DNA from: Thermoplasmata archaeon
GTDB lineage: Archaea > Thermoplasmatota > Thermoplasmata > Lutacidiplasmatales > UBA184
Length of the DNA stretch: 64,000 bases
Assembly (NCBI GenBank): GCA_021823345.1
Contig: JAKAOF010000004.1
Coordinates: forward strand, 15,055 to 79,054
Direction of reading: 5' to 3'
Shown here piece by piece: positions 3,965-37,799 of this stretch; within the stretch, counting starts at the first letter, position 1, and every line of letters starts with the position of its first letter. The translations under genes and the position numbers were made by a program. The notes under the pieces were generated by a model. The model saw nothing but the letters and a program-made list of their open reading frames with translations, was not told where the DNA came from and made no database searches.

Positions 3965-4127
3965 TGCTCGCGAAGAGACCGGTCCTCAGATAAGGCCTTC
4001 TTGTGCCCGCGAATTTCTCCTTGAGCGCTCACCGCCGGAGCTTTCGTCGGGAATCGACTCGGAGTCGATGGCGAAAGGCTTTTAGGTGGGCCCAGTGTGT
4101 GTCACAGCACCTCACGGGGTCATCAAC

Positions 4128-4685
4128 ATGCGTACGAGTGTTTGGCGGAACAATCGCCGGGGAGCCTTAGAAGGAGTGCCACTGTATCTGATCATCCTGA
4201 TCATCATCGCGGCCATCGTGGTCGTGATCGTGCTGGGATGGCTGGCTACCGTGCAACACCCGACGATCGGATCGGTCACGACGGTCGTAGCGGGGTCTAG
4301 CACGATGACCGTGAGCGGTAGTTTCACCTGCACCTCTACCTCGTACTGGTGCTTCACCCCGGTCAACTCGACGGGCGGTTGCCACTACATCTACAACCAG
4401 CCCACCACCGCCCCTGCGATCCAAGTGACGGTCCAGGACAATCACGGGAACAACCTGCAGGGCGCCACCGTCACCTTGACGGCGAGCGGCAGTCTCAACT
4501 TCACGGGTTCGAACATCGCCAACACCGGAACGAACGGCGTTGCCTCCTTCAGCCAGTTCTCCGGCTTCGTGGGCCCGAACACCCAGAGCGGGACGATCAC
4601 GGTCTCCGCCAACTACGCCGCGGGAGGAATCCAGAGCTCTCAGAACGGTGGGACGATCATCATCGATCCACCGGCGGGCTGCTGA
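4128..4685 (+). CDS. Prepilin-like secreted protein (class III signal peptide plus Ig-like/adhesin-like domain); paralog of 21970..22551
   Basis: Start at the in-frame ATG: MRTSVWRNNRRG|ALEGVPLYLIILIIIAAIVVVIVLGWL. The paralog has KRAALEGLPLYLIIMVVVAGVVIVILLSWL. Both end ...PP(A/Q)GC / IPPQC. TATA-like CTTTTAGG about 45 nt upstream. Confidence 0.65.
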   Translation: MRTSVWRNNRRGALEGVPLYLIILIIIAAIVVVIVLGWLATVQHPTIGSVTTVVAGSSTMTVSGSFTCTSTSYWCFTPVNSTGGCHYIYNQPTTAPAIQVTVQDNHGNNLQGATVTLTASGSLNFTGSNIANTGTNGVASFSQFSGFVGPNTQSGTITVSANYAAGGIQSSQNGGTIIIDPPAGC

Positions 4686-4714
4686 TTCCGCGCCCCGCCC
4701 CGGGACGGTAGGGA

Positions 4715-7700
4715 GTGAAGCGGAGGCTCTCCCGACAAGACGGAAGGGTCCCGTACTCCCTGGTGGCACTGGTCGTACTGAGCAGTATCTTCACGCTGTC
4801 GGTCTACTTCGAGCAGGTCGCGCTCTCGACGACCTCGCAGTCCACCTATGATGTCCCCGGGATGACCCAGATGGGGATCGACCGGGCCGAGTCCGAGATC
4901 TCCGCAGTGGCCCAGCAGGACCTGATGAACGTCGAGGTCTCGCTGCTGGGTGCCGGTGCCAATCCGCAACTCAACCTGTTGAACCAATCGCTCAACACCG
5001 AGTTCACGGCCTCGATGGCCTCCCTCGGTTTCTCCACGCCCCAGGGCCTCGTGGTGGACAACGTGGTGATCCGGGCGACCTCCTGGGGGATCAATGCGAC
5101 CTTCTCGGAGGGGACGACGGCGGACGTCGTGCCACACGTGGGCCTCCAGACCGGAACGGGCGTACCCTTGCTTCCCCTGGCCTCGCAGGTGAATTCCACG
5201 AATTTGACCTCCTACGCCAGCACGGAGCTCCCGTTGTACCCCATGGCCGTCGGCCACGTCATGCTCACCGCCTTGGACGGCAACAGCGGAGAGCTGCTCT
5301 CCACGCCGTATGACTTCTCCGTGAGCGTGCAGAGCGAGATCGGACTGCTCGAGGCGCAGAGCGCCGAGTTCTCGGACGCCTCCTGGGGGTCGGGGAGCGG
5401 GCTGGCGAAGCTGGTCTCGTACATCCTCACCAGCCTTGCGGAGCTCCGGGCCCTGTCGGGATACGGGTCCGGGGGATATCCCGGGTACCAGGCCGGCACG
5501 GTGATCTCGGGGGCGACGGGGAATTCCATCCTCTCCTCCGCCGATGTCCACGACGCGGAGAGCCTGGCCGTGCTCTTGGAGTCCCTCCGCTATTTCCGTT
5601 CGTTCGACGGAGCGGCGGTGAATTCCCTGTTGAGCAGCCTGCCCCCCGGGCCTTATGAACAATTGCTCGCGCGCTACGTCTTCAACGGCACCATCGATCC
5701 CGCCACGCTCTACCTGCTCTTCCTCGATGCCCAGGGGGGTTGGTCGGACGGTTGGATCTCGAGCGGGGCGGGGCTCGCCAGTGCCATCTACGGGTTTGCC
5801 GACCGGTTCAAGTTCGACCTGCTCCAGCGGTTCTGGGGCAATGCCACGGTGGACCCGACCTTGCTCGAACCCGTGGCGAGTTGGCCCACGGTGCAGATGC
5901 AAGGCATGGGGTTCGCCCAGACCATGCTCCTCACGTGGCTGTGGGACTACGGGAGCTGGCTCGGGGTCACCCAACAGTCCCTGCCGCCCGAAGACTCCAC
6001 GGCCGTGATCCCGCCCATGGTGGGGAGTGCCAGTGACGGGTTCGGGAACGTCTGTACCTACGTGCTCTTCCCCGGGGGTACCATCGAGACCAGCAATCCC
6101 GGGGTGCCCAACCTCGCGGACCTCATCCTCGGTACGCCGCAGGTCGAGCAGATCTCGGTCCCCGGCAACCCGAACTACAACGTCTATCTCGCCCCGAACA
6201 ACTACCAGGTGTGGGAGAACGTTTCCATCGACCAGCCCTCCGCGCCCTACGCCTACCTGAACGATGCCGGGAACGGGCTGCCGAACGACTGGTGGATCGA
6301 CTTCAACGAGAACTCGACCTACATCACGACCCACGACTCCTTGCTGCTCCTGTTCAACCCGATGGACACGAACCCCTACGATCCCGGGGCCTTCGACCGC
6401 ACCCTGCACTCGGTCCTCGTGGACCTCTCGAACTCGATGCAGCACAAGTCCTCGACCGCCTCGCTCGTGTCCGACAAGGGCTATCTCGACTATGTGGGGC
6501 TCACCGGGGACAACGTCGGGGGGAACAGCACGATCACCGGGACGGGGATGCCGGACCTGTCGACCACCACCGGGAGGAACACCGCCCTGAACACGAGCTA
6601 TTCCTACCTGACCCAGGGGACGTCCAGCATGTTCGGGGGACCGTTCTCGCGGGCACTCTCCAACTTCAGCGTAGCTTCCGGGAACCCGGCGAACCGGACA
6701 TCTTGGTGGGTCAACGGAGCGTCGCACCCCGCGCTCGCCGGCTCGGGAAACCCCACCTCGACGGTGAACGGGGGCGTCAACTGGACGATGTCGGCGATCT
6801 CGAGCTACCCCGCCAGCGAGTGGTTCCAGATGCTCTACACCCTGTACTACGGTTCCGGCGGGACGATCCCGGCGGCCCCTCCACCCCTGTCGCAGATCAA
6901 TTACAACAACATGGACCAGTTGGTCTACAATATCCTGAGCCCCGGGGTCGAGCAGACGCCCCCCACGGGGTATCAGCAACCCAATTTCGCCGTCGATGTC
7001 ATGAACGAGACGTTCATCTCCGTCTATTGCTGGATCACCGGTGACCAGAGCAATTACGGGAACAACATCGGGTGCGGATCGGAGAACGGAGGACCCTTCT
7101 GTCCGAATGGGGGCGGTGGCTTCTTTGGAGGCGGTTGCCTGGGGGACACCGCGAACTCTCCCTTCAATCCCCAGGCCAACGGCAATTTCTTCACGGGCGC
7201 CTGCAACGGGAACAACCAGAACCCGGCCTTCCAACGGGCCATCAACAACTGGTACCTCACGGGCACGGGAGGTCTCGCCAACATGTGGACCCTCGTGGGG
7301 AACTCGGTGATGCAGTCCCTCCAGGGAGGAGTGGACCAGATCCACCAGTTGCTGCAGAGCTCCTGGCAGAACGTATACAACAACACCGGGAATGCGGACT
7401 GGTCGGGTCAGAACTTCACGAACTGGATCCTCCGGTACATCGCTCCCCCGATCCTCAACGACACGAGCGCGATGGGCACCCCCGGCGGGTGGCTGAACCA
7501 GATCTACCGCTCCACGGACCAGTGGCTCCAGACGGGCACCAACCTCACGGGTACGGTCACGAAGATGGACCTGAACCGAGGCCGGCCGTACTCCTTCTCC
7601 CTCGGCAATGCGAGCGTGGAAGGGGCGGACGGCCAGATCTTCAACGAGAGCCTCCGGAACATGACGTTCGCCTTCACGGGCGGCACGCTCGACTGGAGCG

Positions 7701-9349
7701 TTCCGCAATTCACGGTGCATCTCGTCGATCCGCAGAACGACTCGTCGAACATGGGCATCGCCCCCTACGAGACGAGCTGGTCAGTGTCCCTCCAGGGTTC
7801 CTTCTCGGTGGTGCTCACGAGCTCCCGGGAGAGTCTAATCTCCGGTGGAGTGCTACAACCGACGGTGCTCAACCTCAGCATTCCCGTCCATAGCCAGTCG
7901 ACCATCACGGTCTACACCCCATGGCCGCTGGGGAGCGGCTGGGACCCGAGCTCGAACCCGCTCCCCGGGGACCCGACGGTGCTCGAATCCCGCGCGCTCC
8001 TGGGGTTGGAAGGCCACGACTACCATTCCGGGTTCGGGGGCACGGGAGATCTCCTGCCAGGGATCTATCCGAGCGTTCCGCTCGACAACCTCCTCCTGCT
8101 GAGCGCGGCCGTGGGCCGCGTGAGCTCGACGGAAGGGCATTCGCTCGCCGAGCTCTTGGCCGGGTTGCCGGAGGTGGCCGCGGGCCGCTCGGCGCCATGG
8201 AGCCAGAACCTCACCGCCCTCGAACTGACCACGAATTCCGACCTTGCCGCCACCGCGGGCCCCTTCCTCTCGTGGGCGGGAGCGAACTTCTCGGTACTTT
8301 CCAATGACCTATCCTCCGCGGCCCAAGGGGGAGTTCCCTCGACCTTCACGGTCGGCGGGAACGGATTCTTCGGATACAACGCGACGGTGAACACCGACAC
8401 GGATGTCGTGAGCTATTTCGTCGGTCAACCGGCCGGGCCCGGGTACAACCCTCCGGAAGAGTACGCGCTCGCGTTCGGGGGCTCCCGGGTCGGAGATGCC
8501 TTCACGGTCGACAACCCGTACGTGGGGGCGAACCCGGGGACCCATGGCTTCTCCGGGACGTGGGGCACCTCGACGGCCGGGGCGTACGCACTTACCGGGA
8601 ACTGGCAGGAGTTTGGCAGCGTCTACTCGCTCTCCCTTTCAGGGCCCGCGCGACCCGGACCCACCGTTGGGAAAGGGGCCACCTATCCCGAGCTCTCGGT
8701 CCCGTATCTTCAAGGGATCACGGGCGGAGGCTACCCGGCCACCGTATCGGTCCAAGGCGTGGGAGGGATCCCTTCGGCGGCGCTCACCGCCTTTGGTCAG
8801 TCGCTCCCGGCGTCGGGGACCTCGGTGACCTTCCCCCGCTACGTCGCCCAAGAGACCTACGCGGGGGGTCGGTTCTACAATGCGCTCGTGGCGGGAAGCG
8901 TGCCCTCGAGCCCGGGCATCACCTCCATCGGGTATTCGACGGACCTCACCTGGGGGGGAGGAGCTTCCTCCAATTACTCCTTGGTCTTGGTCGACCCTAC
9001 CGGGGCGCTCTTCTCGACCCCGTCGGGAACGGCGGCTTCCGAGGCCTTCCTCCTGTGGCTGGACAACAACGCGGAGACCCTGGGCTACTCGCTGGGAGCG
9101 CCCTCGCCATACCTTACGATCCTCGCCTCGATCCCGTCCGGCCTCTTGTCGCCCGCGTATCGCAACGTGACCATGGTCTGGCAGGAGGGGCTGACCCCGG
9201 TGAGCGCCTATGCCTGGAGCGGTCCGAACATGGCGGCTCTCGAGGCGGACCTGGGAGGCTCCGGTGGTGGAATGGGGAACTCGCCCACGCTAAGTATCGG
9301 GGGCGGGGCGGCCGGGGGATGGGGCTTCACCGGTACCCTCACTGGGTGA
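4715..9349 (+). CDS. Giant (1544 aa) N-terminally membrane-anchored, heavily N-glycosylatable cell-surface protein; paralog of 16966..21684
   Basis: N-terminus MKRRLSRQDGRVPYSLVALVVLSSIFTLSVYFEQ (short basic leader plus one TM). More than 60 NxS/T sequons. Long colinear similarity to the 16966..21684 product, for example VDPQNDSSNMGIAPYETSWSV vs VDPQDSSVNMGIAPFETTWDV. The antisense 1026-aa ORF 4640..7720 is an artefact. Confidence 0.85.
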   Translation: MKRRLSRQDGRVPYSLVALVVLSSIFTLSVYFEQVALSTTSQSTYDVPGMTQMGIDRAESEISAVAQQDLMNVEVSLLGAGANPQLNLLNQSLNTEFTASMASLGFSTPQGLVVDNVVIRATSWGINATFSEGTTADVVPHVGLQTGTGVPLLPLASQVNSTNLTSYASTELPLYPMAVGHVMLTALDGNSGELLSTPYDFSVSVQSEIGLLEAQSAEFSDASWGSGSGLAKLVSYILTSLAELRALSGYGSGGYPGYQAGTVISGATGNSILSSADVHDAESLAVLLESLRYFRSFDGAAVNSLLSSLPPGPYEQLLARYVFNGTIDPATLYLLFLDAQGGWSDGWISSGAGLASAIYGFADRFKFDLLQRFWGNATVDPTLLEPVASWPTVQMQGMGFAQTMLLTWLWDYGSWLGVTQQSLPPEDSTAVIPPMVGSASDGFGNVCTYVLFPGGTIETSNPGVPNLADLILGTPQVEQISVPGNPNYNVYLAPNNYQVWENVSIDQPSAPYAYLNDAGNGLPNDWWIDFNENSTYITTHDSLLLLFNPMDTNPYDPGAFDRTLHSVLVDLSNSMQHKSSTASLVSDKGYLDYVGLTGDNVGGNSTITGTGMPDLSTTTGRNTALNTSYSYLTQGTSSMFGGPFSRALSNFSVASGNPANRTSWWVNGASHPALAGSGNPTSTVNGGVNWTMSAISSYPASEWFQMLYTLYYGSGGTIPAAPPPLSQINYNNMDQLVYNILSPGVEQTPPTGYQQPNFAVDVMNETFISVYCWITGDQSNYGNNIGCGSENGGPFCPNGGGGFFGGGCLGDTANSPFNPQANGNFFTGACNGNNQNPAFQRAINNWYLTGTGGLANMWTLVGNSVMQSLQGGVDQIHQLLQSSWQNVYNNTGNADWSGQNFTNWILRYIAPPILNDTSAMGTPGGWLNQIYRSTDQWLQTGTNLTGTVTKMDLNRGRPYSFSLGNASVEGADGQIFNESLRNMTFAFTGGTLDWSVPQFTVHLVDPQNDSSNMGIAPYETSWSVSLQGSFSVVLTSSRESLISGGVLQPTVLNLSIPVHSQSTITVYTPWPLGSGWDPSSNPLPGDPTVLESRALLGLEGHDYHSGFGGTGDLLPGIYPSVPLDNLLLLSAAVGRVSSTEGHSLAELLAGLPEVAAGRSAPWSQNLTALELTTNSDLAATAGPFLSWAGANFSVLSNDLSSAAQGGVPSTFTVGGNGFFGYNATVNTDTDVVSYFVGQPAGPGYNPPEEYALAFGGSRVGDAFTVDNPYVGANPGTHGFSGTWGTSTAGAYALTGNWQEFGSVYSLSLSGPARPGPTVGKGATYPELSVPYLQGITGGGYPATVSVQGVGGIPSAALTAFGQSLPASGTSVTFPRYVAQETYAGGRFYNALVAGSVPSSPGITSIGYSTDLTWGGGASSNYSLVLVDPTGALFSTPSGTAASEAFLLWLDNNAETLGYSLGAPSPYLTILASIPSGLLSPAYRNVTMVWQEGLTPVSAYAWSGPNMAALEADLGGSGGGMGNSPTLSIGGGAAGGWGFTGTLTG

Positions 9350-9676
9350 GGTTCCCTCGGTCGGGGATTCCGTAGCGACCCGTTTCCGGGAAGATCGTGC
9401 GGGGGTGCGCCGCGGCACTGGTTGAGGCTCGGGTTCCTCCTCTGTCGGGGTCACGTACCCCTCGGGAAGCGGGTGGGGGGGTTCTACGAGGAACTTCGGG
9501 TCCTTGAGGAAGAGCTCGGCGAAGCCGCAGGCGCGGCAGACCTTCGCCCGGAAGAGACCGTCGCTGCGGATGGTCCCGGCATAGAGGCAGAGGACCCCGG
9601 GGGAGGTTCCCTTGTAGGTCTTGAGATCGTTCACCCAGACGACGTCGGGCGAACGGCACTTGGGGCACTTCGTCAC
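9290..9676 (-). CDS. Small zinc-ribbon protein (CPKC...CRAC) with a disordered Pro/Glu/Thr-rich tail
   Basis: MTKCPKCRSPDVVWVNDLKTYKGTSPGVLCLYAGTIRSDGLFRAKVCRACGFAELFLKDPKFLVE: Lys-rich, non-GC-artefact composition with two CxxC pairs. The 3' end overlaps the end of the convergent giant gene by about 60 nt, so the exact stop is unsure. Confidence 0.5.
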   Translation of the reverse strand: MTKCPKCRSPDVVWVNDLKTYKGTSPGVLCLYAGTIRSDGLFRAKVCRACGFAELFLKDPKFLVEPPHPLPEGYVTPTEEEPEPQPVPRRTPARSSRKRVATESPTEGTSPSEGTGEAPSPGRPAPDT

Positions 9677-9737
9677 GGCCGCTGCAACGGGAGCGGACTA
9701 AAAGCCCTTCTCCCGAACGTTCCCGGGTCGGCCGGGC

Positions 9738-12713
9738 TCATCTCCACCGCGAGGACCCGGGGGTCCGAGAACGTCCCCCGCTCTTGGGGGCGTTGCCGAG
9801 GGCGCGACGCTTCCGGTAGAAGTAGAGCACGGCGAGCACGACCGCCGCCCCCCCGATCACGGCGACCGTGACGATGATCCCGAGCTCGGCGCCCGAGAGG
9901 CCCGAGCCGCCGCTCGGAGGAGGGGTGGTCTTCTTCGTGGTGTTGTTGCTGGTCGTGTTGTTCTTCGGCGGCGGAGGCGGAGGGGTCGACGGCTTGAGCA
10001 CGCTGATGGAGAGGGTCGCCCGGGCGCTGTACCCGAAGGAATCATTCACCGTGAAGATGGCGGTGTAGTTCCCCGGGTTCGCGTATTCGTGCGTGATCGT
10101 CCCGTTGTCAGGGAGGTTGGTGGCGACCGGGCCATCCCCATAGGTCGCGGTCACCGGGTTGTAGGAAGCGGAACCTCCGGTGGTGGTCCAACTGAAGGAG
10201 ACATTGAGCGGGGCGTACCCGCTCACGGTCGGGGCGTTGAGGGACAAGTTCACGTGGCCGAAGGTGTAGACCCCGCCCTCCAGGACGAGGGACGTGCCGG
10301 AGGCATCCGAGAGCGTGGCGGTGATGTTGTGGACGTTCTGGTAACCGGTGGTGGTGAAGGTGAAGCTCGAGGAGGATCCGTTCTGCGACGCATACCCCGG
10401 CGTGGACCACCGCGGGGCGGCGTAGGGGGTCGCTCCCCCGAAGTAGCTGAGGAGGAACTGGAAGTCGAACGGGATCTCCGCCTCGGGGGCGTTGGCGAAC
10501 ATGCTGGCCCCGAGCGGCGGGGCGGTCGTGAAGAGCGAGAGCGTCCCGTTCACGAGGGTGGACCCGAAGAGGAAGGCGCTCCCCGCGAAGAGCGTGAACG
10601 GGGTTCCCACCCAGCTTGACCCCAGCATCGGGGTGAGATTGGTGAGGGTCGACCCGGGGTATCCGATGAAGACGAGGGGATGGGACAGGTTGACGAGCGT
10701 GGTCCCCGAGAAGCCGCCCAAGAGGAGCGCTTCCCCGTCCACGGCGAGGGAGGTCACGTAGATCGGAGAGGGCGGGATGAGGAGGGGGTTCCCCGGGGTG
10801 GCGCTACCGGGGACCCAGGTCTCGACCCCCTTCCCGTCATAGATCCAGAACGCGCTGCCGTTCCAGGCGGCCTGGCTCTGGGCGACCAGGGGGATCGTGG
10901 ACCCGAAGAACCCGGAGATGTTCTGGAACGGGGAGAACGCGCTGGCGTTGAAGAACCACGCCAGCCCGGAGAGGTTCGAGCTCTCGCCCCAGACGAGCGC
11001 GCTCGTGGGCGAGGAGGGCACGAGGGCGGTGATCGCGTACGCCGGGCTCAGCAATCCCGCGGACTGCGAGGTCCAGCTCGACGTGGCAAAGTCGTAGCTT
11101 TGCAGCAAAGCGGCCGAGCCGCCCTGGGTTCCACCGGCCCACAGCGTGCCATTGACCCAGGCGAGGACGGAGACGGCCGCGTTGGGAATGAGGGCGAGCC
11201 GCGTGACCGATCCCCCCGTGAGCGGGATCTCGAGGATGAGGGACTGGTTGGCGACGAAGAGGTTGCTCCCGTGGATGGTGGAGGCGACCGGATTGTCGAA
11301 GCCCGTGGGGAGGAGCGAGCCCACGGACACCGAGGAATGGGTCGACAAGTTGTACAGGAGGCCCGCGCCTTCCGTCCCGTTGTTCCCGCCGAGCCAGGCC
11401 ACTCCCGAACCGTAGGAAAGGCTCCCGACGGAAGTGATCCCGGAGGGGAGGGAGGAAAGGACGATCGGGCCCGAACCGGACCAGGAACCGAGGAACCCCC
11501 CGTTCTGTACCCGATACCCTCCGACGAGGAGGGTGGTCCCGGACCACGCCAGCGACTCCGGCACGGTCGCGCTGGTCCACGCCGCGGCGGAGAGGGTCTG
11601 AGCGACCGAAGTGGCGGCATCGAGCTCGAGGATCCCGCCGGGAGAGGCCAAGGTGAAATTGGTCGTGGTCCGGGAATCGGCCGAGGCGGCCGTCGGCAGG
11701 CCGAGGGTCGTGGCCGCCGCCGTCACGTTCGCAAAGGCCCCGGTCTGGAGGTTAAGCATCCCGAAGACCGTCACGCTCGTCAGGTTCACGGTGGTGCTGA
11801 GCAGCACCCAGGGGCCGTTGGCGGCCCAGAGGGAGACGGGCGAGGTGAAGCTGGAAGTGGCCGGAAGGTCGGCCGAGAGGTTCCGGAGGACCCAGGTACC
11901 GGCCGAGGGGTACAGGAGACCCAGGGTGTTCCCGGAGGAGTTTGTGGCGAGCAGCACCCCGGAGCGCGTCCCGAGGAGGCCCGAGGGAGTTCCCCAGGTG
12001 GACGGCACGTATCGGCTCACGTTCACAAAGCCGAGGGTGGAGTTGTAGGCGATGTACTCGGGAGCGAGGACGGCATCCGTTCCGAGGAGGAGCGTGAAGT
12101 TGTTGGACGTCGCCCCTCCCGACAGCGAGGCCAGCCCGGAGGGAGGGAGGAGCTTCTGCGCGGTGCCGCTCGAGTTCATCTCGATGACGAGCGGGCTCCC
12201 GGTAAGACCCGAGAAGGCCCCGTTCCACAGGAGGACCGAGGAGGTCGAGCCGGACAGGAGGCTGCCCGAGAAGGCGTGGTAGGCCGCGAGGTTCGCCAGG
12301 TCGGACTTCGAGAGGGGGCCATAGGCGGTGGCGCTCGTGTCCGCCAGCTTCCCGGAGGAGAGCAGGCCGGTCTTGGGAAGGCCCGTCCCGTTGTCCACGC
12401 CGAGGGCGAAGGTCGTTCCCCCCGACAACGGCCATAGGCCGGTCACCTGGGACCAGGAACCTCCCGCGACCGAGGGCACCATCGGCGAGATGTTGGTAAC
12501 GGGCTCCGCCGTGGAGTTGCTCGTGATGTACGTCCAGTTGGTCTGTTGCGGACGGGAAGCGCTTCCGGTGGGGGGGAAAAATTGAGCCGAAGAGGGCGAT
12601 CCATGGGACGAGGCGAACGCGTTGCCCCCTCCCGAGACCACCAGCACGGCGAGGACCGCGAGCGGAGCGAGCAGCGAGAGAAGACCCTGGGGGCGTACGG
12701 GGGTACGTTTCAT
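9738..12713 (-). CDS. Secreted repeat-rich (likely beta-propeller) surface protein with a PKD domain, Thr/Pro-rich stalk and C-terminal TM anchor
   Basis: Signal peptide MKRTPVRPQGLLSLLAPLAVLAVLVVSGGGNAFA. PKD-like segment PLNVSFSWTTTGGSASYNPVTATYGDGPVATNLPDNGTITHEYANPGNYTAIFTVNDSFGYSA. Stalk STPPPPPPKNNTTSNNTTKKTTPPPS, then TM LGIIVTVAVIGGAAVVLAVLYFY and a basic tail. Confidence 0.8.
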   Translation of the reverse strand: MKRTPVRPQGLLSLLAPLAVLAVLVVSGGGNAFASSHGSPSSAQFFPPTGSASRPQQTNWTYITSNSTAEPVTNISPMVPSVAGGSWSQVTGLWPLSGGTTFALGVDNGTGLPKTGLLSSGKLADTSATAYGPLSKSDLANLAAYHAFSGSLLSGSTSSVLLWNGAFSGLTGSPLVIEMNSSGTAQKLLPPSGLASLSGGATSNNFTLLLGTDAVLAPEYIAYNSTLGFVNVSRYVPSTWGTPSGLLGTRSGVLLATNSSGNTLGLLYPSAGTWVLRNLSADLPATSSFTSPVSLWAANGPWVLLSTTVNLTSVTVFGMLNLQTGAFANVTAAATTLGLPTAASADSRTTTNFTLASPGGILELDAATSVAQTLSAAAWTSATVPESLAWSGTTLLVGGYRVQNGGFLGSWSGSGPIVLSSLPSGITSVGSLSYGSGVAWLGGNNGTEGAGLLYNLSTHSSVSVGSLLPTGFDNPVASTIHGSNLFVANQSLILEIPLTGGSVTRLALIPNAAVSVLAWVNGTLWAGGTQGGSAALLQSYDFATSSWTSQSAGLLSPAYAITALVPSSPTSALVWGESSNLSGLAWFFNASAFSPFQNISGFFGSTIPLVAQSQAAWNGSAFWIYDGKGVETWVPGSATPGNPLLIPPSPIYVTSLAVDGEALLLGGFSGTTLVNLSHPLVFIGYPGSTLTNLTPMLGSSWVGTPFTLFAGSAFLFGSTLVNGTLSLFTTAPPLGASMFANAPEAEIPFDFQFLLSYFGGATPYAAPRWSTPGYASQNGSSSSFTFTTTGYQNVHNITATLSDASGTSLVLEGGVYTFGHVNLSLNAPTVSGYAPLNVSFSWTTTGGSASYNPVTATYGDGPVATNLPDNGTITHEYANPGNYTAIFTVNDSFGYSARATLSISVLKPSTPPPPPPKNNTTSNNTTKKTTPPPSGGSGLSGAELGIIVTVAVIGGAAVVLAVLYFYRKRRALGNAPKSGGRSRTPGSSRWR

Positions 12714-12804
12714 GGGGTATCCACTAGAGAGGAAGCAGGGGAACCTATCAAGGAAACCATGGCAGAGTTGCGTGGTGGACTGGGCTCTCCCGGCCAGAAA
12801 AGGG

Positions 12805-15800: not shown

Positions 15801-16833
15801 CGGATCCGCTGACCTCGACATCGATGCCCAGGATGAACTGCGGCTGGAAGACGAAGTTCAACGATGCCCCGAACGAGAGGACCCCGAGGTCGATGCTGAG
15901 GCCGGGGATCCCAAACCCGAAATTGAGCGAGGGGAGGTTGTACGTCCACTGTTTGGACCACTCACATTTCGCCGATATCTGGGCGGAGAGCGTCAGGGTG
16001 TTCGTGAAGGTGAAGTAGGTCGCGATCGACTGGATGTGGATGAAGGGGAAGTTCCAGTCAAGCGTGACATCGATCGAGATGGTGAAGGTGACCTTGACCT
16101 CATCTTGGGCCCCGACGAAGAGATTGGCCGAACAGATCGAGTTATGGGGGGAGAAGGAGAATCCCTGCGAGAAGGTCTGGTCGAAGAGGGTGACGGTGAG
16201 GCTCGCGTCCGGGAGCGGGGACAGCGGCCCGTACATCGCCTGGGCCTGGGCCATGGTGACGGGGTAGGCCGCGTAGAGCTGCCCGTTCACAATGATGTCG
16301 GTGATGTTCCCGGGTAGGGTATAGGCGACCAGGAGACCGTTGCTCTCGGAGGTGGACACCACGAGCCGGAAGATGTCGCCGCCGGACCCCCCGGGGGCGG
16401 CGCCCCCCAGGAGGACGGCCCCGGCGTGGACCTGCTGCACGGTGCTCGAGGTCGCATCAAAGTAATAGAAGCCCCCGGCGGATCCCACGAGCGCAGGAGC
16501 CCCGGAGGTGTTGAGGTAGACGAGGGCCTTGTTGACCATCACGTTCTCCTCGTGGATGAGCAGATGGTCCCCGTAGAAGGTGCCGTTGGGTTGCCGGGCG
16601 AACTGGTCATTGAGCACGATCGACTGGGCCGCCTGCTGGTCCTGGGTGAGGACGGGGGTCGGGGAGCGGGGGACGGAGGAAGCTACGGGGGCCGATGTGG
16701 TGGCGAGGGAGTTGGCGGAGGTGGGCCACGAACTCAGAACAAAGACGAAGGCGAGTGCGACCGGTAGAGCCGCGGTCCAGAAATTATGGCGAGCGATACT
16801 TCGGCCTTTCTGAACTACGGTTTTCCAAAGCAT
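12805..16833 (-). CDS. Secreted multidomain cell-wall hydrolase-like protein: PKD domain, GH18/25-like region, SLT lytic-transglycosylase motif and C-terminal CHAP-like Cys/His peptidase domain
   Basis: N-terminal signal/TM WTAALPVALAFVFVLSSW. PKD: TLSVTVKGGKTPYTYSYSGLPPGCSSSDLSTLTCAPSSGGTYSVVVTVKDQSGSSARATVSLVV. SLT hallmark: SMAYQESGF ... GARAEGILQ (compare xxQESxfNP ... GLMQ). CHAP-like: GLECAHFVSNSL ... GTVIGHVAVVV (Cys ... His). Gly-rich linkers between domains. Confidence 0.8.
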   Translation of the reverse strand: MLWKTVVQKGRSIARHNFWTAALPVALAFVFVLSSWPTSANSLATTSAPVASSVPRSPTPVLTQDQQAAQSIVLNDQFARQPNGTFYGDHLLIHEENVMVNKALVYLNTSGAPALVGSAGGFYYFDATSSTVQQVHAGAVLLGGAAPGGSGGDIFRLVVSTSESNGLLVAYTLPGNITDIIVNGQLYAAYPVTMAQAQAMYGPLSPLPDASLTVTLFDQTFSQGFSFSPHNSICSANLFVGAQDEVKVTFTISIDVTLDWNFPFIHIQSIATYFTFTNTLTLSAQISAKCEWSKQWTYNLPSLNFGFGIPGLSIDLGVLSFGASLNFVFQPQFILGIDVEVSGSVGSSVSFVSSAKLGAEYQAGQGLQMIHDVSPLTTTYSPPKLDADFTVKLFAKIPNINFDVDLGFCADTIFGNWCPSFFSFTLFQAYFYIEPYLEFQAQLEATLSKITYCLSLTAGLEIDAGVDKILIWNPGWNWQLFSKEWLLWQWPNGCSSGGATGPLTVSSFTANPSTVTVGNPTTLSVTVKGGKTPYTYSYSGLPPGCSSSDLSTLTCAPSSGGTYSVVVTVKDQSGSSARATVSLVVQRSSGGGGTGPGGTGGGSGPGGLAPPPPISYMPVVCQACTWIGNSSAFSATYSSLAPDMNSVTEFGYQVSSSAKDWFGPAPWFANSQDDIATWAHTNSKPLYMAITAGGSCSQLSLTTFLGNSGLWANFITEAINVAKAKGYNGYILDLAPNSCFTGASGSLGTHYASFIQQFASALKSSGLHSLIVFLPPPGSPSAGSSASDLWYYNALGTLTGVTWYLEDFTCSLSGYETALSQATHFLGTSDVGVLQSSMACSGSPNALLDMEAEANWSAYNSFSKQGWFALDDGNASVPGATFWNFVYDLENGVCATAACGTSTGGGGTGTGGGNSTGGGGNYGAGCPNSNFYDQSTQLNLQETVDCAAAAGFSNNLVITFVSMAYQESGFCGGAIESGSGSCSQVNPGSGARAEGILQEGTSGQNPPSGGAFPIGNYNPSSCSTYSGNWGGIYFNPTCAFQWAYAYYQVNTYNFWGSYLSGAYCKWAPTGWSGTGPVACPGGGQNAANLPWSSVCPNLNCLTQSSSGGSSYNTAAVVSYANNYYDKVLSDGKFFADSDCGYGNGQVLSYSPGTPLLSINTPGGTGCLYYHGLECAHFVSNSLDAGGLSVPNTYGGGVSGDPSAPDLVNWLLGQGAYNGHAHDGTQVTSASQLSPGDVVGYYEGGTVIGHVAVVVSTTGGNVLVDAHTTSQQGAPWSMGSGMGPWVLIHITSTSAKSITHSPSQSEGPLGAGVVALHFVPPHLLVLPPLGWMARVAVNSPRSA

Positions 16834-16839
16834 GAAGGC

Positions 16840-16965
16840 TACCCCCCCGTCCCCTGCTTACCATGTTATATTGTCGCAGGGCCATATTAAGGTGTCTGTT
16901 ACGTGTAACGGACGGAGGCAGAAGACCCTCCATTTTTCTTCCGTGAAGTTGGAAAAAACAGGGGC
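16840..16965 (-). promoter_or_regulatory. AT-rich intergenic region with TATA-like elements, putative promoter of the SLT-CHAP hydrolase gene
   Basis: Only AT-rich stretch in the neighbourhood (ccatgttatattgtcgcagggccatattaaggtg ... ggaaaaaaca). Sits immediately upstream (minus strand) of the Met at 16833. Confidence 0.3.
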
Positions 16966-19900
16966 TCACTGTTCGCTCAGGCTGCCTTGGTAGGTGTATG
17001 TGCTGCTCGACGCCCCGCCCAGGTCCACCACGGCGCTCGAACTCCCCCCATCGAGCAATCCTCCCATGTCGGCCTCCATGGAGGCGAAGTTGGGATCGTT
17101 GAACGCGGCCGCGGGGTCCGTGAGGGCGACCGGAGTGGGTTGGAAGGCGCCGATGCCATAGGTGGAATTCCATCCGACGCTGGGAAGCAGCGAGCTCGAC
17201 ATCCATCCGGCCTGAGGAGCGCCCACCTGAGGCTGGGCCATGAGGGCGAGCGCCATGTAATCGGGGGCCGACTCATTGAGCGAGTACCCCATCACGCGGT
17301 TCGCCGACACGTCCCACAGGAGGAACGCATCCATGTTCGCGGCGGTGATCCCGCCCGCCGGGGTGAATATCACGCTGGTCGAGGACCACAATTGCCCACC
17401 GGGCATCTGGAGGGCCGTTCCCCAGCGCCACTGCTGGCTCGGGAGAGTACACCCGGTCGACTGCTGGAGGCAGTCGAAGAGGTAGCCGGCCAGGTACTGC
17501 TCGGTCGTGACGTAGGTGTCGAAGGTGGGGGAGGTGGTCTTCATCCAGTTCTGGTAGGCCTTGGTCAACTCGGTCTGGGTGGTCCCGAGCCCGGACGGAG
17601 CCCCTCCGACGTAGAGCGAGGCGGTGCTCGCGGTATACCCGTCATGGGGTACCAAGAGCGAGCTCAGCCCCGGTGAGTACGCCCAGAGCTGCTGCGAGAT
17701 GGGGTGGCCGGGACCGGTGAGGTCGAGCCGCGAGGTCACGCCGCTCTGGTTCCAGAATCCCAGGAGGGACCAGGAGGAACCGGGGGCCTTCCACATCGAC
17801 CGCAAGGTCATGTTGGCATTCCCGGGATCGTACTCCACGGTACCGGTGATCGAATTGGTGGTGAGGGACTCGGTCGCCTCGAACACGTCGGAGCGGGAGT
17901 TCACCGAGGTGCCGCCCTCGCCCGACTGGAAGTTGGCATAGTGGGATTGCAGGTTGAGGCTCGTCATGTTGTCGCCGAAGAACGTGTGATAGTTGAGCGC
18001 CAGGACGGGAGTGAGCATCGAGCCCGAGGCAAGGTGCAGCTTTCCTTGGATCTGCCCCATGAGGGATAAGAACACCGAGGAGCTGTACTTCGCCACGGAG
18101 TTGTACGCCAGGCCGTCCCACTGGACATCCTGCGATAGCGCCAGGGAGAGCGCCGGTCCCCCGTCGGGACCCGCGTCGGGGAGGTTCGAGAGCATCGCGG
18201 CCTCGTCGGCGGTCTCGTTCTTGGCGATGATGGACGCCCCGTGCAGGGCCACGAGGAGCTTGTTGAGGAGGGGCGAGACGTAATCTCCGGGGAGGAACAC
18301 CCAGTTCGCCGGACTGCTCCCGAGCGGTTTGTAGTCGTAGCTGAAGGTGGCCGGATGACCGACCACCAGTCCCAGGAGCCCCCGCGTCTCCAGGGGGATG
18401 GGATCCGTCTTCTGGAGGATGTTGCTTTGGAGCGGCCAGGGGGTCTCGATCGTGACCGGGAAGTTCGCGCGTAACGGAACCTCGATGGTCAAGGTGGTGT
18501 TGTGGAGCTTCCCTCCCTCGAGCAGCTCCTTCTGCGGGTCCGATATCGTCAGGCGGACCGTACCTCCCATGAACACGTCCCACGTGGTCTCGAAGGGAGC
18601 GATCCCCATGTTGACCGAGCTGTCCTGCGGGTCGACGGTATGTACGCAGACCTGGGGCTGGGTGAGGGAGTAGGTCAGGGTACCGGGCGTTCCGCTCTCG
18701 CTGTAGTACGAAACGGAGTCCAGGTTGAGCCCCGGGACCGATTCCACACTCCCGTCCGTTAGCGCTGCCGAGCGGGTCCCCTGCCAATACTCGTACGGCA
18801 TGTTCCGCTGCAGGTACGGGGAGTAGGGCAGGGACTGCTCGCTCGCCATGTTCTCTGTCCATTGCTGGGACGATTCGTAGATCCCCGGGATCCATTGCTC
18901 GGCGAGCGACCCCGTGTTCTGGTAGATCGAGGTGGGGTCCGGGTTGCCCGAGGCCAGACTGGGGATGTCCACGTAGGTTTCGATGAACCCTCCCGCGCCC
19001 GAGAACGAGTTTCCCTTCCAATCCGCCTTGCCGGTGTAATGCTGGATATTGTTCCAGGAGGTCGTGATGAGGGAGAACTGGGAGTTTCCGCTGCCGATGG
19101 TCGGGGTGCCGGCCTGTTCCACCAGCCCGAGCACCTGGGACCAGAGGTTCTGCTGGTCGTTGTAGTACATCGCGGAAGCCTGGAGGAAGGGCTCGCAGGT
19201 GTACGGCTGGTCGCAGTCGTCCTGGCCGGTGAAGGTCGATGCGGCGGCGTTGGCGTAGAGGGCGCACTCCTGGTCCACCTGGGCAGGTCCGGCCCCGGAT
19301 CCTTGGAAGCCGGGGGCGAAGAGGAACCAGTCGAGGTTTCCCTGGCCGCCGTTCCAGCTTCCCTCAGAACTGCCCATCCAGGCATAGATGTCGTCGAAGG
19401 TCGCGGACTGGACATCTTCCCGGAAGTTCGGTTCGTAAAGGTACTGGGCCGGAGGGACCGGAAGCTTGCCCGCAGCGGGACTGACCCAGAGCCCATCCTC
19501 CGCGGAGGAGGTCTGTACCGGGGCCCCGCTGGGGAGCGTGGGATCGATGTCCCCGTTCATGCCGTAGTAGAGGTTGTAGTAGGTCATGTACCACAACCGG
19601 GCGCCCAACCGGGCGGTGTCGGAGAGGGAGTAGGTGGTATGTACCGAGGGGCCGGTTCCGACCCCGGAGACGTGTTCGGCCCCGGTCACCCACCAGTTGT
19701 CGAGGTTGGACGGCGTGTTCTGGGAGCTGATGTAGCCGGTCGCGGCCCACAGCGTGGAGTATTCGGCGGCGCTCCCCTGGGTGAGGTAAGAGTAGCTCGA
19801 ATTCAACACGTCCGAGCCCGTGAGGGTGGGTAGCCCGTTGGCCGAGGGCCCCATCTTCGCCATGGCACGTGCGATGGTGTCCACGTAGCCCGACACCTTG

Positions 19901-21684
19901 GTCTGGGCGTACTGCTCGGACATCGACTGGTTCAGGTTCTGGATGATCTTGGTGACCGTGTAGTTCGCCGGATAGTTTCCATTGTAGGAGCTCCCGGTGT
20001 ACTCCCCGAGCAGGGACTTGTCCACCAACTGGTAGGAGAACTTGTGGGACAACTGGTAGTTGGGCGAGCCTTGGAAGGAGCTGATGTCGAGGCGGGTGTG
20101 GAACACGAAGGGGTCCGGAGAGTATCCCCCGCTCGCCTCGTTGCCCACCAGGAGGTTGTCCATGGTGGGGACCTTCGGGACGTTGATCGCGAGCGTGGTG
20201 CTCGGGAGCATCACGTAGGTCGCGGGCACGTAGATGATGAAGGGAGGACCCCCACTGTCGGGGACCACGTAGCAGCCGACCTCGGCGGTCGATTCGAGGG
20301 GCCCGAGGTTCCCGGTGGCGCTTTGCGCGTTCAGCGAGTGGGTCGCGCAGGCCCAAGAATTCTCGACCGGGGGATCGCCGCCGTTCGTGACCGGCGGGTT
20401 ACAGATCGCGACCCCGAGCCAATTGGCATAGTCATTGGCGTACTCCGTGACCCGAGCGTACGCCCATTGGTCCACGATGGAGGCACCTTGCTGCCAGATG
20501 TCTTCCCAGGTGGCCACCGGTTCGAGCAGCGTGGGGTCGACCACGTAGTTGCCGAAGTAGGTGTAAAGGATGTCGTAGGTGAAACGGTCGACGAAGCTGT
20601 ACACCGACTGGGCCAGCGTGGCTCCCACCTGGCTCGTGGCGGTGGTCGGGCTCTTGCCCATCGACTGCATGAGGAACAGGAAGAGCGCGGCGCTGTCCAC
20701 CGTTCCATTGCTGACATACTTCTGGACCAGGGAGTCCAGGGGAGAATGGCCCGCGCCGAAGGCATCGGTCGCGTGCGTGTCGTACGTTCGGAAGGATTGG
20801 AGGGTGGTCAGCAGGAGCGCCAAGTTGCCGGCGAGAGATATGTCCGAGGAAGGGAGCACGCTCGCCACGGAAGTACTGGGTCCGTACGGTCCGCCGCCTA
20901 CCCCCTCGAGGGCATTGAGTTCGCCGACGGTGGTGAGGATGTACTGGGCGAGCCGGGTGAACTCGGCCTCGGGACCCTCGACCGAGTTCGTGAAGGACTC
21001 GGCGGAGGACTCGAGGAGGCCCAAGGCGGACTGGGGGCTTTCCACGAACGGGAAGGTGGCTTCGGAAAAGGCGCCGGAGGTGTTCTGGTAGGCAAACAGT
21101 TGGATCGACCCCACGACGGCCGGATACGGGGTCACGGACGCGGGCGTGGTGGCAAGGTAGGTGTTCTGGGCGGATGGCCCCACGGGCGCGGAGGAGGAGG
21201 GGTCCGCCTCGGACACCGTGGGATAGAGTCCTTCGGAGTGCAGGGAGGGGAAGGTGACGTGCACCCACCAAGAGCTGATGCAGACGACGAACGGGTCCTC
21301 GATCACCGCGTTCTTGCAGGCGGGCATCGAGCCGGACGCGGCGAAATGCATGGGGAAGTTCGTGCCCACGTAGGACCCCACATCGGAATCCACCTCCTGG
21401 TCGACCAAGGTGAGGTTGGGGTTCACGACGGTCCCATCCTGGAGCCCGGTCGCCACCCGGCTCAGCAGGGCGAGGGTGGCGTTCTTCTCGATCGCCTGGG
21501 AGGCGGTCCCCAGGATCGTGGAGGAGGATTGCGAGGCGGTCGTCCCCCCGTTGAGCAGCAGGTTCTGTTCGCTCACGAGAAGGGAGCTGCCGATGATCAA
21601 CACGGCCGACAGGAGCACGATCGCCACGAATGAATATGGTATCCGGCCCGAACGAGACCGGGAGAAGCCTCGGCGATTTCTCAC
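16966..21684 (-). CDS. Giant (about 1570 aa) N-terminally membrane-anchored surface protein; paralog of 4715..9349
   Basis: Start set at the in-frame GTG giving VRNRRGFSRSRSGRIPYSFVAIVLLSAVLIIGSSLLVSEQ, colinear with MKRRLSRQDGRVPYSLVALVVLSSIFTLSVYFEQ. The 76 ORF residues upstream of it look non-coding. Sequon-rich, with multiple conserved blocks shared with 4715..9349. Confidence 0.8.
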   Translation of the reverse strand: MRNRRGFSRSRSGRIPYSFVAIVLLSAVLIIGSSLLVSEQNLLLNGGTTASQSSSTILGTASQAIEKNATLALLSRVATGLQDGTVVNPNLTLVDQEVDSDVGSYVGTNFPMHFAASGSMPACKNAVIEDPFVVCISSWWVHVTFPSLHSEGLYPTVSEADPSSSAPVGPSAQNTYLATTPASVTPYPAVVGSIQLFAYQNTSGAFSEATFPFVESPQSALGLLESSAESFTNSVEGPEAEFTRLAQYILTTVGELNALEGVGGGPYGPSTSVASVLPSSDISLAGNLALLLTTLQSFRTYDTHATDAFGAGHSPLDSLVQKYVSNGTVDSAALFLFLMQSMGKSPTTATSQVGATLAQSVYSFVDRFTYDILYTYFGNYVVDPTLLEPVATWEDIWQQGASIVDQWAYARVTEYANDYANWLGVAICNPPVTNGGDPPVENSWACATHSLNAQSATGNLGPLESTAEVGCYVVPDSGGPPFIIYVPATYVMLPSTTLAINVPKVPTMDNLLVGNEASGGYSPDPFVFHTRLDISSFQGSPNYQLSHKFSYQLVDKSLLGEYTGSSYNGNYPANYTVTKIIQNLNQSMSEQYAQTKVSGYVDTIARAMAKMGPSANGLPTLTGSDVLNSSYSYLTQGSAAEYSTLWAATGYISSQNTPSNLDNWWVTGAEHVSGVGTGPSVHTTYSLSDTARLGARLWYMTYYNLYYGMNGDIDPTLPSGAPVQTSSAEDGLWVSPAAGKLPVPPAQYLYEPNFREDVQSATFDDIYAWMGSSEGSWNGGQGNLDWFLFAPGFQGSGAGPAQVDQECALYANAAASTFTGQDDCDQPYTCEPFLQASAMYYNDQQNLWSQVLGLVEQAGTPTIGSGNSQFSLITTSWNNIQHYTGKADWKGNSFSGAGGFIETYVDIPSLASGNPDPTSIYQNTGSLAEQWIPGIYESSQQWTENMASEQSLPYSPYLQRNMPYEYWQGTRSAALTDGSVESVPGLNLDSVSYYSESGTPGTLTYSLTQPQVCVHTVDPQDSSVNMGIAPFETTWDVFMGGTVRLTISDPQKELLEGGKLHNTTLTIEVPLRANFPVTIETPWPLQSNILQKTDPIPLETRGLLGLVVGHPATFSYDYKPLGSSPANWVFLPGDYVSPLLNKLLVALHGASIIAKNETADEAAMLSNLPDAGPDGGPALSLALSQDVQWDGLAYNSVAKYSSSVFLSLMGQIQGKLHLASGSMLTPVLALNYHTFFGDNMTSLNLQSHYANFQSGEGGTSVNSRSDVFEATESLTTNSITGTVEYDPGNANMTLRSMWKAPGSSWSLLGFWNQSGVTSRLDLTGPGHPISQQLWAYSPGLSSLLVPHDGYTASTASLYVGGAPSGLGTTQTELTKAYQNWMKTTSPTFDTYVTTEQYLAGYLFDCLQQSTGCTLPSQQWRWGTALQMPGGQLWSSTSVIFTPAGGITAANMDAFLLWDVSANRVMGYSLNESAPDYMALALMAQPQVGAPQAGWMSSSLLPSVGWNSTYGIGAFQPTPVALTDPAAAFNDPNFASMEADMGGLLDGGSSSAVVDLGGASSSTYTYQGSLSEQ

Positions 21685-21935
21685 GATACGTTTACCCTGG
21701 TCTGTATAAGTGGCGAGCGGTAGAAAAGCCCTTCGACACGAAAGAACCCGTAAGGACCCGTTTGGACGGGATCCGTCCGAGCCGGGCAGGGTCCCTGTGA
21801 AGACCCGTGCGGTGCCACAAACAATTGCTTGGCCCAACCCTAGGCGCGTCGTGTTGGCAGATGCGTGGGCCGACCGCCCACGACGTGTCGAAAAGCCGGT
21901 ATAGAAACACATTTCTCACCGGTGTCTGTCGCAAC

Positions 21936-21943
21936 CATTTTAT
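21936..21943 (+). promoter_or_regulatory. TATA box (TTTTATAG) about 27 nt upstream of the 21970 start codon, implying a leaderless transcript
   Basis: aaccaTTTTATAGcatgccgggcatatacatacggggttgATG. The spacing matches the archaeal TATA-to-TSS distance, so the mRNA would be leaderless or nearly so. Confidence 0.4.
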
Positions 21944-21969
21944 AGCATGCCGGGCATATACATACGGGG

Positions 21970-22551
21970 TTGATGCAACACATGCACCGGCGTTTCAATG
22001 TGGACAAGAGAGCCGCGCTCGAGGGCCTTCCGCTCTATCTGATCATCATGGTAGTGGTGGCAGGCGTCGTCATTGTGATTCTGCTTTCGTGGCTCTCGTC
22101 GGTGAACCATGCCGGGATCGGTTCCATTTCCGCGAGCTTCTACGGAAAGGGGAACATCGCGGTCGACATCGGCGGCCCATCCTGCAAGACCGCCAGCACG
22201 GCCTACAACCTCTGCTACAATTCGGGATCCGCCGGCACGTGCGACTTCACGAACAATCCCTCGGCCACCGCCAATGGCGAGGCGTTGGTCGTTTCCGTCT
22301 ATGATACGAAAGGCAATGCTCTCAGCGGGGTTTCCGTCCAGCTGTCGTTGAGCGCCGGTTTCGACTGGGGAGCGATCCCCACTTCGGCCACGACCCTCGC
22401 TAACGGAAGCGCCCTGTTCGCGAGCCTCACCGGCCACATCTCGGCGAACACGAACTCGGGCACCCTCACCATCACCGCGACGGACTCCTCCGGTACGAGC
22501 ACCACGCAGTCGACCCAGCTCGTTATCAACGTAATCCCGCCTCAGTGCTGA
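21970..22551 (+). CDS. Prepilin-like secreted protein (class III signal peptide); paralog of 4128..4685
   Basis: MMQHMHRRFNVDKRAALEGLPLYLIIMVVVAGVVIVILLSWL, then a Ser/Thr/Gly-rich domain ending IPPQC. Divergent from the giant paralog gene and immediately upstream of the 969-aa surface protein. Confidence 0.65.
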   Translation: MMQHMHRRFNVDKRAALEGLPLYLIIMVVVAGVVIVILLSWLSSVNHAGIGSISASFYGKGNIAVDIGGPSCKTASTAYNLCYNSGSAGTCDFTNNPSATANGEALVVSVYDTKGNALSGVSVQLSLSAGFDWGAIPTSATTLANGSALFASLTGHISANTNSGTLTITATDSSGTSTTQSTQLVINVIPPQC

Positions 22552-29450: not shown

Positions 29451-29455
29451 CGGTT

Positions 29456-34702: not shown

Positions 34703-34708
34703 CGAACG

Positions 34709-37688: not shown

Positions 37689-37799
37689 GTCAGAAGTATG
37701 GGCGGCCCCGTCCTTAAGGTTTGCCAGAATTCCGCGGCGAACGACCTCGACGGGAGTTCTCCTACCCACCCCGGTCCTGCCTTCCGGGAGCACGGGTCG

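Follow-up and report, generated by a model that had tools for sequence, protein, structure and literature searches.

A 64,000-nucleotide stretch of DNA from an uncultured, high-GC Thermoplasmata archaeon (the window; GC content 65%, position 1 being its first letter) encodes two small pilin-like proteins, A1 and A2, and two giant N-terminally anchored proteins, G1 and G2, each small gene lying next to a giant one (Table 1). Housekeeping genes of the window, i.e., Endo_dU, DUF835, valyl-tRNA synthetase (ValRS) and carbamoyl-phosphate synthase, are of archaeal type. A GC content at third codon positions (GC3) of 0.8–0.9 sets real genes apart, and the four focal genes have values of 0.81–0.87. 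Antisense open reading frames (ORFs) of up to 1026 amino acids over the giants (4640–7720 on the minus strand, 20044–21633 on the plus strand, and others) show a GC pattern across codon positions that is not coding-like, and were therefore rejected as artefacts of the high GC content. A1 and A2 share 38% identity across 157 amino acids (E = 2e-21), while G1 and G2 are colinear over their full length with 27% identity (E = 8e-118), which confirms the paralogy of both gene pairs far beyond chance. Both giants begin, after basic residues, with the motif GR(V/I)PYS(L/F)VA(L/I)V(V/L)LS.

In copy 1, A1 precedes G1 in tandem with a gap of 29 nt. In copy 2, the genes diverge from a shared intergenic region, in which TTTATA (21939–21944) lies 26–31 nt ahead of the A2 start and, on the minus strand, TTATAC (21709–21704) lies 20–25 nt ahead of the G2 start. 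This agrees with the original prediction for this stretch of DNA, which had described two pairs of paralogs in a tandem and a divergent, TATA-containing arrangement, a common N-terminal motif in the giants, prepilin-like small proteins, and a location of both protein types outside the cell or at its surface. The transcriptional partner of A2 appears to be another gene, since the A2 stop codon overlaps the GTG start of Big969 (GTGCTGA, 22545–22551), and the same overlap is found in the genome YS4. From this overlap, A2 is predicted to be translationally coupled to the 969-residue surface protein Big969, and is thus apparently operonic with Big969 and not with G2.

The same prediction had held the small and giant genes to be separate from the pilus loci and to lack a dedicated ATPase. 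This is contradicted by contig L008, which is 99% identical to the window and extends it leftwards (window position = L008 position minus 5286). Beyond window position 1, the minus-strand genes p167, p226, p581 and p269 are continued on L008 by an ATPase of the T2SSE/FlaI/TadA type (ATPase1, which matches the TadA and FlaI models), a 701-residue platform protein with two T2SSF repeats (PilC1), and three pilin-like genes. A complete type IV filament (TFF) operon therefore lies 163 bp from the A1–G1 pair and is transcribed divergently from it. A second operon (TFF operon 2, 28381–37793, minus strand) is a gene-for-gene paralog of operon 1 plus its leftward continuation, and runs in the order p206, p238, fn3_708, p336, ATPase2, PilC2 and pilin-like genes.

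Gene neighbourhoods were compared by means of a tblastn map of 22 loci and profile searches, covering about 12 Thermoplasmata genomes; a metagenome scan for extra loci returned a single locus, which was already in the set. On the map, giants adjoin TFF operons in the window genome, FK3, clean3262, WH2, REEB18, clean282 and two JGI genomes. At G1-type loci, an A gene lies directly upstream of the giant on the same strand in all of the 10 genomes, with giant identity as low as 38%, and a p167 homolog is found at most about 1.3 kb upstream of the A–G1 pair in 8 of these. The type-1 operon follows beyond p167 wherever the flank is long enough, the DX1 locus ending just past p167. Two variations on this arrangement were seen: in YS4.bin60, genes for GNAT, PKD and Amidase_6 proteins are inserted between the operon and A–G1, and in clean282 and L003/L017, A and G share a strand with the genes for the ATPase, PilC and pilins and come after them.

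The G2-type giants are arranged differently. In WH2.bin11, clean3262 and GCA_027376635, a G2-type giant faces a type-2 operon head-to-head, the operon starting with its p167-like gene, and there is no A gene; both the map and a search with the A profile show the A gene to be missing at three G2-type loci (L007, L019 and L021), all with the giant facing the operon paralogous to operon 1, so that separateness from the pilus loci fails for copy 2 as well. A divergent G2–A2 arrangement is confined to the window genome and its close relatives YS4 and FK3. The conserved pairing of a small and a giant gene proposed in the original prediction thus holds for A and G1 and does not extend to G2 and A2. 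In most loci, the giant has homologs of p167 and p226 as its immediate neighbors, and it is these two proteins, and not A, that are its most widely conserved partners, p167 the most of all. At a locus from a distant low-GC lineage (L028), a propeller protein, a p167-like protein (E = 2e-19), a p226-like protein and a giant (P0108, E = 5e-76 to the giant profile) are encoded in this order, all in the same direction.

Trees of the giants, ATPases and A proteins were built by neighbor joining (NJ) without bootstrap. The giants fall into a G1 and a G2 clade and the ATPases into two types (1 and 2), and the two splits match, with clean282 as the one exception: seven genomes combine G1 with type 1, and two combine G2 with type 2. 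In the simplest history consistent with this match, the whole system, including the giant, would have been duplicated long ago and rearranged locally afterwards in the lineage of the window. A2 forms a clade that is sister to the A1 clade and lies inside the window/YS4/FK3/DX1 lineage, and it appears to have arisen from A1 by a more recent duplication, after the G1/G2 split, in agreement with the missing A gene at the three G2-type loci. Taken together, the younger age of A2 in this NJ tree, the G2 loci devoid of A, and the overlap of A2 with Big969 argue that the second pair is not a duplicated copy of the first, and a two-gene module present twice, as originally described, does not account for the locus.

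The class III signal rule of the FlaFind literature comprises basic residues, [KR][GA] at positions −2/−1 and a hydrophobic helix of about 20 residues. Both A1 (RRG/ALEGVPLYLIILIIIAAIVVVIVLGWL) and A2 (KRA/ALEGLPLYLII) conform to it, and the N-terminus RRGALEG(L/V)PLYLII...GWLS is nearly invariant and common to 13 A homologs, all of which also have an Ig-like domain. Neither protein matches a curated pilin model (e.g., Pfam Pilin_N/DUF1628 or Class_IIIsignal). Matches to Pfam Big_1 are below threshold (28.6 and 21 bits, with a cutoff of 34.9), NCBIfam yields nothing, and a PDB profile search yields nothing below E 0.1, with only chance-level Ig-like matches. In every A-family protein the last residue is Cys (A1, 4683–4685; A2, 22549–22551; homologs in L001–L020) and the number of Cys residues is even (2 or 4), which suggests a conserved intramolecular disulfide that would fix the C-terminus in place, comparable to the disulfide bond found near the C-terminus of bacterial type IV pilins.

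The A proteins are linked to the filament genes in two ways: by the position of A1, 163 bp from TFF operon 1, and by the A-family profile, which in every operon picks up the first of the small genes that follow PilC, a short A paralog. In a large database, the profile finds 87 proteins, including forms of about 150 residues in Methanomassiliicoccales, Ca. Natronoplasma and other Thermoplasmatota. Some of the matching genes stand alone, and one is located ahead of a gene for a large surface protein of another kind. The RRG signature of A recurs in p167, p226, pil138 and pil176, and together with the profile matches this identifies A as a long member of a Thermoplasmatota pilin-like family. In a Methanomassiliicoccales genome (L023, CP070739.1, 10001–14173), a 159-residue A-like pilin is followed by an unrelated 1159-residue surface protein with transglutaminase-core and Big_7 domains, an echo of A2–Big969 in that a small Ig-like pilin lies ahead of a large surface protein.

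Each giant has exactly one hydrophobic segment, located at the N-terminus, and G1 contains 28 N-glycosylation sequons compared with 17.7 expected from shuffled sequences. Profile and structure searches, which had been put forward with the original prediction as a route to the fold of the giants, returned no match: G1 and G2 have none in Pfam or NCBIfam, either at full length or with the N-terminal 200 residues, a PDB profile search with a 14-sequence alignment of giants gave nothing at E ≤ 1, and a Foldseek search of PDB with two low-confidence AlphaFold2 models of G1 gave nothing at E ≤ 0.001. The predicted secondary structure of G1 is a mixture of α and β elements, which is indicative only.

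Close homologs number 10 for G1 and 7 for G2 among 5.8 billion proteins. All genome records that encode giant relatives are named Thermoplasmata archaeon, save one bin labeled bacterium. Locus L010 (JAKBKR010000008.1), which has the layout A1-G1-PKD-Amidase-G2, was deposited as "MAG: bacterium isolate DX1.bin10" and is probably a mislabeled or misbinned archaeal contig. A profile search with the conserved core (G1 residues 160–1130) reaches a wider family of 157 clusters at E ≤ 1e-3, 110 of them at E ≤ 1e-10; these are mostly proteins of 1250–2100 residues, and their named members are all Thermoplasmata. Common to the family are the N-terminal anchor motif [GA][RK][VI][PS]F[AS]LVAV..., a module matching G1 residues ~165–375, and a second module around an invariant HLVDPQ...TPWPL block. 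Between the two modules, distant relatives (P0114, P0132 and P0146) carry a GH25 muramidase (P0114), a C39-like peptidase (P0132), or arrays of PKD/Big_5 domains, as if this region served as a cargo slot. A second subfamily of giants (L028, 20104–24308; L027, 10001–16776) consists of proteins of about 2000 residues with PKD/Big_5 domains; their partner is a homologous protein, N-anchored and about 290 residues long, that begins with MxDYLMSK..WIIAAV. L028 therefore harbors two distinct superfamily giants.

DUF7286 (PF23957), an uncharacterized family which we take to be archaeal and whose model has 1000 positions, is matched over its first ~60 positions by several of the giants' distant relatives. 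The matched part corresponds to the N-terminal anchor motif, and none of the matches goes beyond profile position 62; two relatives, P0110 (30.7 bits) and P0160, pass the cutoff of 27 bits over positions 2–62 only. G1 and G2 do not match DUF7286, even when the N-terminal 200 residues are searched at E ≤ 5, and a p167-like neighbor matches DUF7285, a family with the adjacent accession number, weakly (E = 0.039). A literature search for DUF7286 found no papers, and a tblastn search of plasmids with P0160 found no match. A possible link of the giants and p167 with DUF7286 and DUF7285 is thus a lead, not a result.

Other genes of the window recur near the giants to varying degrees. The convergent arrangement of p128 and G1 is retained in L001, L010 and L011 (59–71% identity), and Amidase_6 and PKD genes recur beside giants in L001, L010 and L020, in positions relative to the giants that vary. 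Within TFF operon 1, p581 has hydrophobic segments at both the N- and C-terminus, a faint WD40 match and a conserved operon position, while p269, 30% identical to its paralog p336, is kept beside the ATPase gene in L004–L016. Further along the window (42085–45976, minus strand), genes encoding a 966-residue PQQ-like β-propeller protein and a 310-residue CarboxypepD_reg-like protein are unlinked to giants in the examined loci.

Table 1 Focal genes, intergenic regions and neighboring features in the window
Feature	Position	Strand	Description
A1	4128–4685	+	Pilin-like; class III-like signal RRG/ALEGVPLYLII, Ig-like (Big_1-like) domain, C-terminal Cys
G1	4715–9349	+	1544-residue N-anchored extracellular protein, G1-type giant
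G2	16966–21684	-	1572-residue paralog of G1, G2-type giant
A2	21970–22551	+	Paralog of A1; stop codon overlaps Big969 start
Divergent intergenic region, G2/A2	21685–21969		285 nt; TATA-like box for each gene
Divergent intergenic region, TFF operon 1/A1–G1	3965–4127		Weak TATA-like elements on both strands
p167	3461–3964	-	Pilin-like, GRRG/VAGFLEEVP and hydrophobic helix; first gene of TFF operon 1
p226	2779–3459	-	Pilin-like, RRGRRG/EV motif followed by hydrophobic helix
p581	1037–2782	-	Secreted β-propeller-like surface protein of TFF operon 1; Sec signal, C-terminal transmembrane (TM) anchor; paralog of fn3_708
p269	231–1040	-	Cys-rich cytoplasmic protein of TFF operon 1, just upstream of ATPase gene; GC3 0.86, 7 Cys, no hydrophobic segment
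p128	9290–9676	-	128-residue Zn-ribbon protein, convergent with G1 and overlapping its last 60 nt
PKD991	9738–12713	-	991-residue surface protein; Sec signal, PKD domain, C-terminal TM anchor; recurrent neighbor of giants
Ami1342	12805–16833	-	Secreted 1342-residue protein; Amidase_6 domain, 29 Cys; recurrent neighbor of giants
Big969	22545–25454	+	Surface protein; Sec signal, Big_1 domain, C-terminal TM anchor; predicted operon partner of A2
p202	28381–28989	-	Pilin-like, TFF operon 2, SRSRRG/VIEMPLELTII; paralog of pil176
First pilin-like gene after PilC2	28989–29456	-	Short A paralog of pil138 type; A-family profile E = 6e-14
PilC2	29456–31576	-	TadC/PilC-like platform protein of TFF operon 2; 39% identical to PilC1 (T2SSF repeats)
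ATPase2	31566–33827	-	T2SSE/FlaI/TadA-family ATPase with N-terminal Zn-ribbon
p336	33692–34702	-	Cys-rich cytoplasmic protein; paralog of p269
fn3_708	34709–36835	-	Surface protein with fn3 and propeller-like regions, C-terminal TM anchor; paralog of p581
p238	36616–37332	-	Paralog of p226, TFF operon 2; true start probably internal to the ORF
p206	37173–37793	-	Paralog of p167, first gene of TFF operon 2; elsewhere faces a G2-type giant

The giants are extracellular, N-terminally anchored, and genetically tied to TFF operons, to p167 and p226 and, in the case of G1, to A. With moderate confidence, we interpret the giants and their small neighbors as accessory parts of two duplicated TFF (type IV pilus-like) clusters, and the most likely role of the giants, by analogy, is that of a system-specific surface or tip adhesin. 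Each TFF system encodes a FlaI/TadA-type ATPase with an N-terminal Zn-ribbon, a single TadC/PilC-like platform protein of about 700 residues, a Cys-rich cytoplasmic protein, a C-terminally anchored β-propeller/fn3 surface protein, and several pilin-like proteins with RRG signals. G1 and G2 would be the large extracellular components specific to each system, held by the [GA]R[VI]PY[SA] hydrophobic helix at their N-terminus; A1 would be an Ig-like pilin co-transcribed with G1, and A2 a later duplicate of A1 co-transcribed with Big969. At the platform, the N-terminal helix of the giant may join the pilin-like proteins p167, p226 and A, and the giant may thereby come to lie on the filament or next to it, serving as the adhesin or head of its particular system. 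The proposal of a tip or head position is based on analogy with PilY1 and its minor pilins, or with modular pilins, and agrees with the large adhesin-like proteins published for system 2 loci (see below). The filament tip-adhesin pair of the original prediction is thereby retained in part, a filament-associated adhesin being still the best functional guess.

A number of observations weigh against the interpretation of the giants as TFF accessory proteins. Within the window, p206, with which operon 2 starts, faces the ValRS region and is ~15 kb away from G2, and the 64 kb contain no gene for a prepilin peptidase. In clean282, the ATPase that precedes a G1-type giant is of type 2, contrary to the matched pairing elsewhere, and for the more distant family members there is no ATPase within 10 kb in L028 and there are no TFF genes within 10 kb in L027. 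The giants do not conform to the class III rule: their motif is [GA]R[VI]PY[SA], with D, S or T at −2 relative to G, and since G comes before R, it does not fit the canonical [KR][GA] order. As the anchor motif is strongly conserved across the wider family, the giants may be processed in a non-canonical way. Finally, AlphaFold2 models of G1 residues 1–800 and 781–1544, each computed with a 13-sequence alignment, have a mean predicted local distance difference test (pLDDT) score of 39.4 and 42.7, respectively, and as a result of these poor models no fold supports any function of the giants.

A different role, which we consider rather unlikely, is that of an envelope scaffold or stator, i.e., an N-anchored wall protein that surrounds or anchors the filament base, with p167 and p226 being FlaF/FlaG-like, in a lineage that may lack a regular S-layer. 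In archaellum operons, FlaF and FlaG are encoded ahead of the ATPase, as p167 and p226 are here. The giants are also large, membrane-anchored and probably glycosylated, and their locus is crowded with other anchored surface proteins; however, these neighbors (PKD991, Big969 and p581) are anchored at the C-terminus and the giants at the N-terminus. Archaeal S-layer glycoproteins carry a C-terminal membrane anchor or sorting signal, whereas the sole hydrophobic segment of G1 and G2 is N-terminal, and neither giant matches an S-layer domain family by Pfam, NCBIfam or PDB sequence searches. The sheath or S-layer-like protein considered in the original prediction has thus found no support in S-layer or sheath family features. 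A scaffold is further disfavored by the presence of two diverged giant paralogs, one matched to each TFF system, and by the rarity of the close giant family in the protein database. In its favor, Thermoplasmatales have an unordered glycoprotein shell that has been proposed as an anchor for filament machinery (PMC12448462).

Somewhat less probable still, and in our view unlikely, is that the giants are displayed or secreted cargo of a TFF machinery that acts as a type II secretion system or bindosome, for substrate capture or for attack on bacterial walls, perhaps together with the Amidase_6 and PKD proteins. The GH25 muramidase and C39-like peptidase domains, which occupy the same position in distant relatives, would suit such a function, as would the recurrence of a secreted Amidase_6 protein next to the giants, and TFF machineries functionalized with binding proteins have been proposed in a 2026 preprint. 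G1 and G2 themselves have no enzyme or binding domain detectable with Pfam or NCBIfam, and the putative partners have no need of a TFF system, as PKD991 and Big969 have a Sec signal and a C-terminal anchor, and Ami1342 a Sec signal. Moreover, the Amidase_6 and PKD genes are placed differently in YS4 and are absent at several loci. The self-contained module of a prepilin-like and a giant protein in the original prediction, duplicated as a unit and independent of pilus machinery, is very improbable: the constant A1–G1 tandem and the intergenic region shared by G2 and A2 in the window speak for it, but ATPase and PilC genes are immediately beside copy 1, G2-type giants occur without A in L007, L019 and L021, and A2 is younger than the G1/G2 split (NJ without bootstrap) and overlaps the Big969 start.

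The feature is thus real and well conserved; rather than a novel type of system, it represents an unannotated accessory family of duplicated TFF loci. The giant family is without annotation, domain model or structure, and although large adhesin-like proteins of TFF loci have been noted in surveys, none has been characterized. A set of genes comprising p167, p226, A, the giant, the ATPase and PilC is kept together across genomes, and the duplication of the whole set into two matched systems in one lineage offers a natural test case for how a filament machine retains accessory proteins of its own. The muramidase or peptidase inserts in related giants hint that some members do more than adhere. 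A bolder extension, which we regard as speculative and improbable, is a Thermoplasmata superfamily of "mega-pilins" of 1.2–2.1 thousand residues, in which the [GA]R[VI]PF/Y-hydrophobic N-terminus would be a non-canonical class III-type assembly signal, and the proteins would be TFF-mounted filament heads with a variable cargo site, in which nothing is detectable for G1 and G2 and which holds a GH25 muramidase, a C39-like peptidase or PKD/Ig arrays in relatives. If so, Archaea that may lack an S-layer could grip, and sometimes digest, bacterial neighbors. The family will be of modest practical value as long as neither a cultured relative nor a recombinant ectodomain has been investigated.

In modular type IV pilins, e.g., PilB and PilC of Streptococcus sanguinis, a pilin N-terminus is fused to a large functional module. 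The giants resemble these in having an N-terminal pilin-like helix and a large extracellular module, with inserts that vary among relatives (GH25, C39-like, PKD/Big_5), but they are far larger (1.5 thousand residues) and have no canonical prepilin cleavage motif. The PilY1 system of bacterial type IVa pili, for which DUF2341 proteins are proposed archaeal analogs, is similar in that a very large non-enzymatic extracellular protein is encoded with minor pilin-like genes, an ATPase and a platform protein; the giants may share with PilY1 the role of a tip-located adhesin, which is an analogy only. There is no sequence match between the giants and PilY1/Neisseria_PilC or DUF2341, neither the PilY1/Neisseria_PilC β-propeller nor DUF2341 was found by Pfam or by Foldseek of the low-confidence models, and the giants have a pilin-like N-terminal helix instead of a Sec signal. 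The CdiP pilus of Cuniculiplasma (PMC12448462) was considered as the closest system and rejected, since that pilus is of the Aap-like type and has two ATPases and a platform protein that is split.

The euryarchaeal "clade 2" or "system 2" TFF loci encode "large adhesin-like proteins" within the locus (Makarova et al. 2016, PMC4858521; Sivabalasarma & Albers 2026 preprint). Compared with these, the giant, p167, p226, p269 and A match no pilin or accessory family in Pfam or NCBIfam, and neither a MinD/FleN gene nor, as mentioned, a prepilin peptidase is seen in the window. The two operons resemble system 2 in gene content, with the T2SSE domain and N-terminal Zn-ribbon of ATPase2 and the single-gene platform PilC1 (701 residues). 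The likeness, assessed by gene content, extends to the ATPase (VirB11/FlaI family, N-terminally extended), the platform protein (one TadC/PilC-like gene) and the pilin-like genes, of which there are several and some lack a canonical class III motif. Further common features are accessory proteins of the membrane and surface, the presence of multiple loci in a genome and, in the giants, large adhesin-like proteins.

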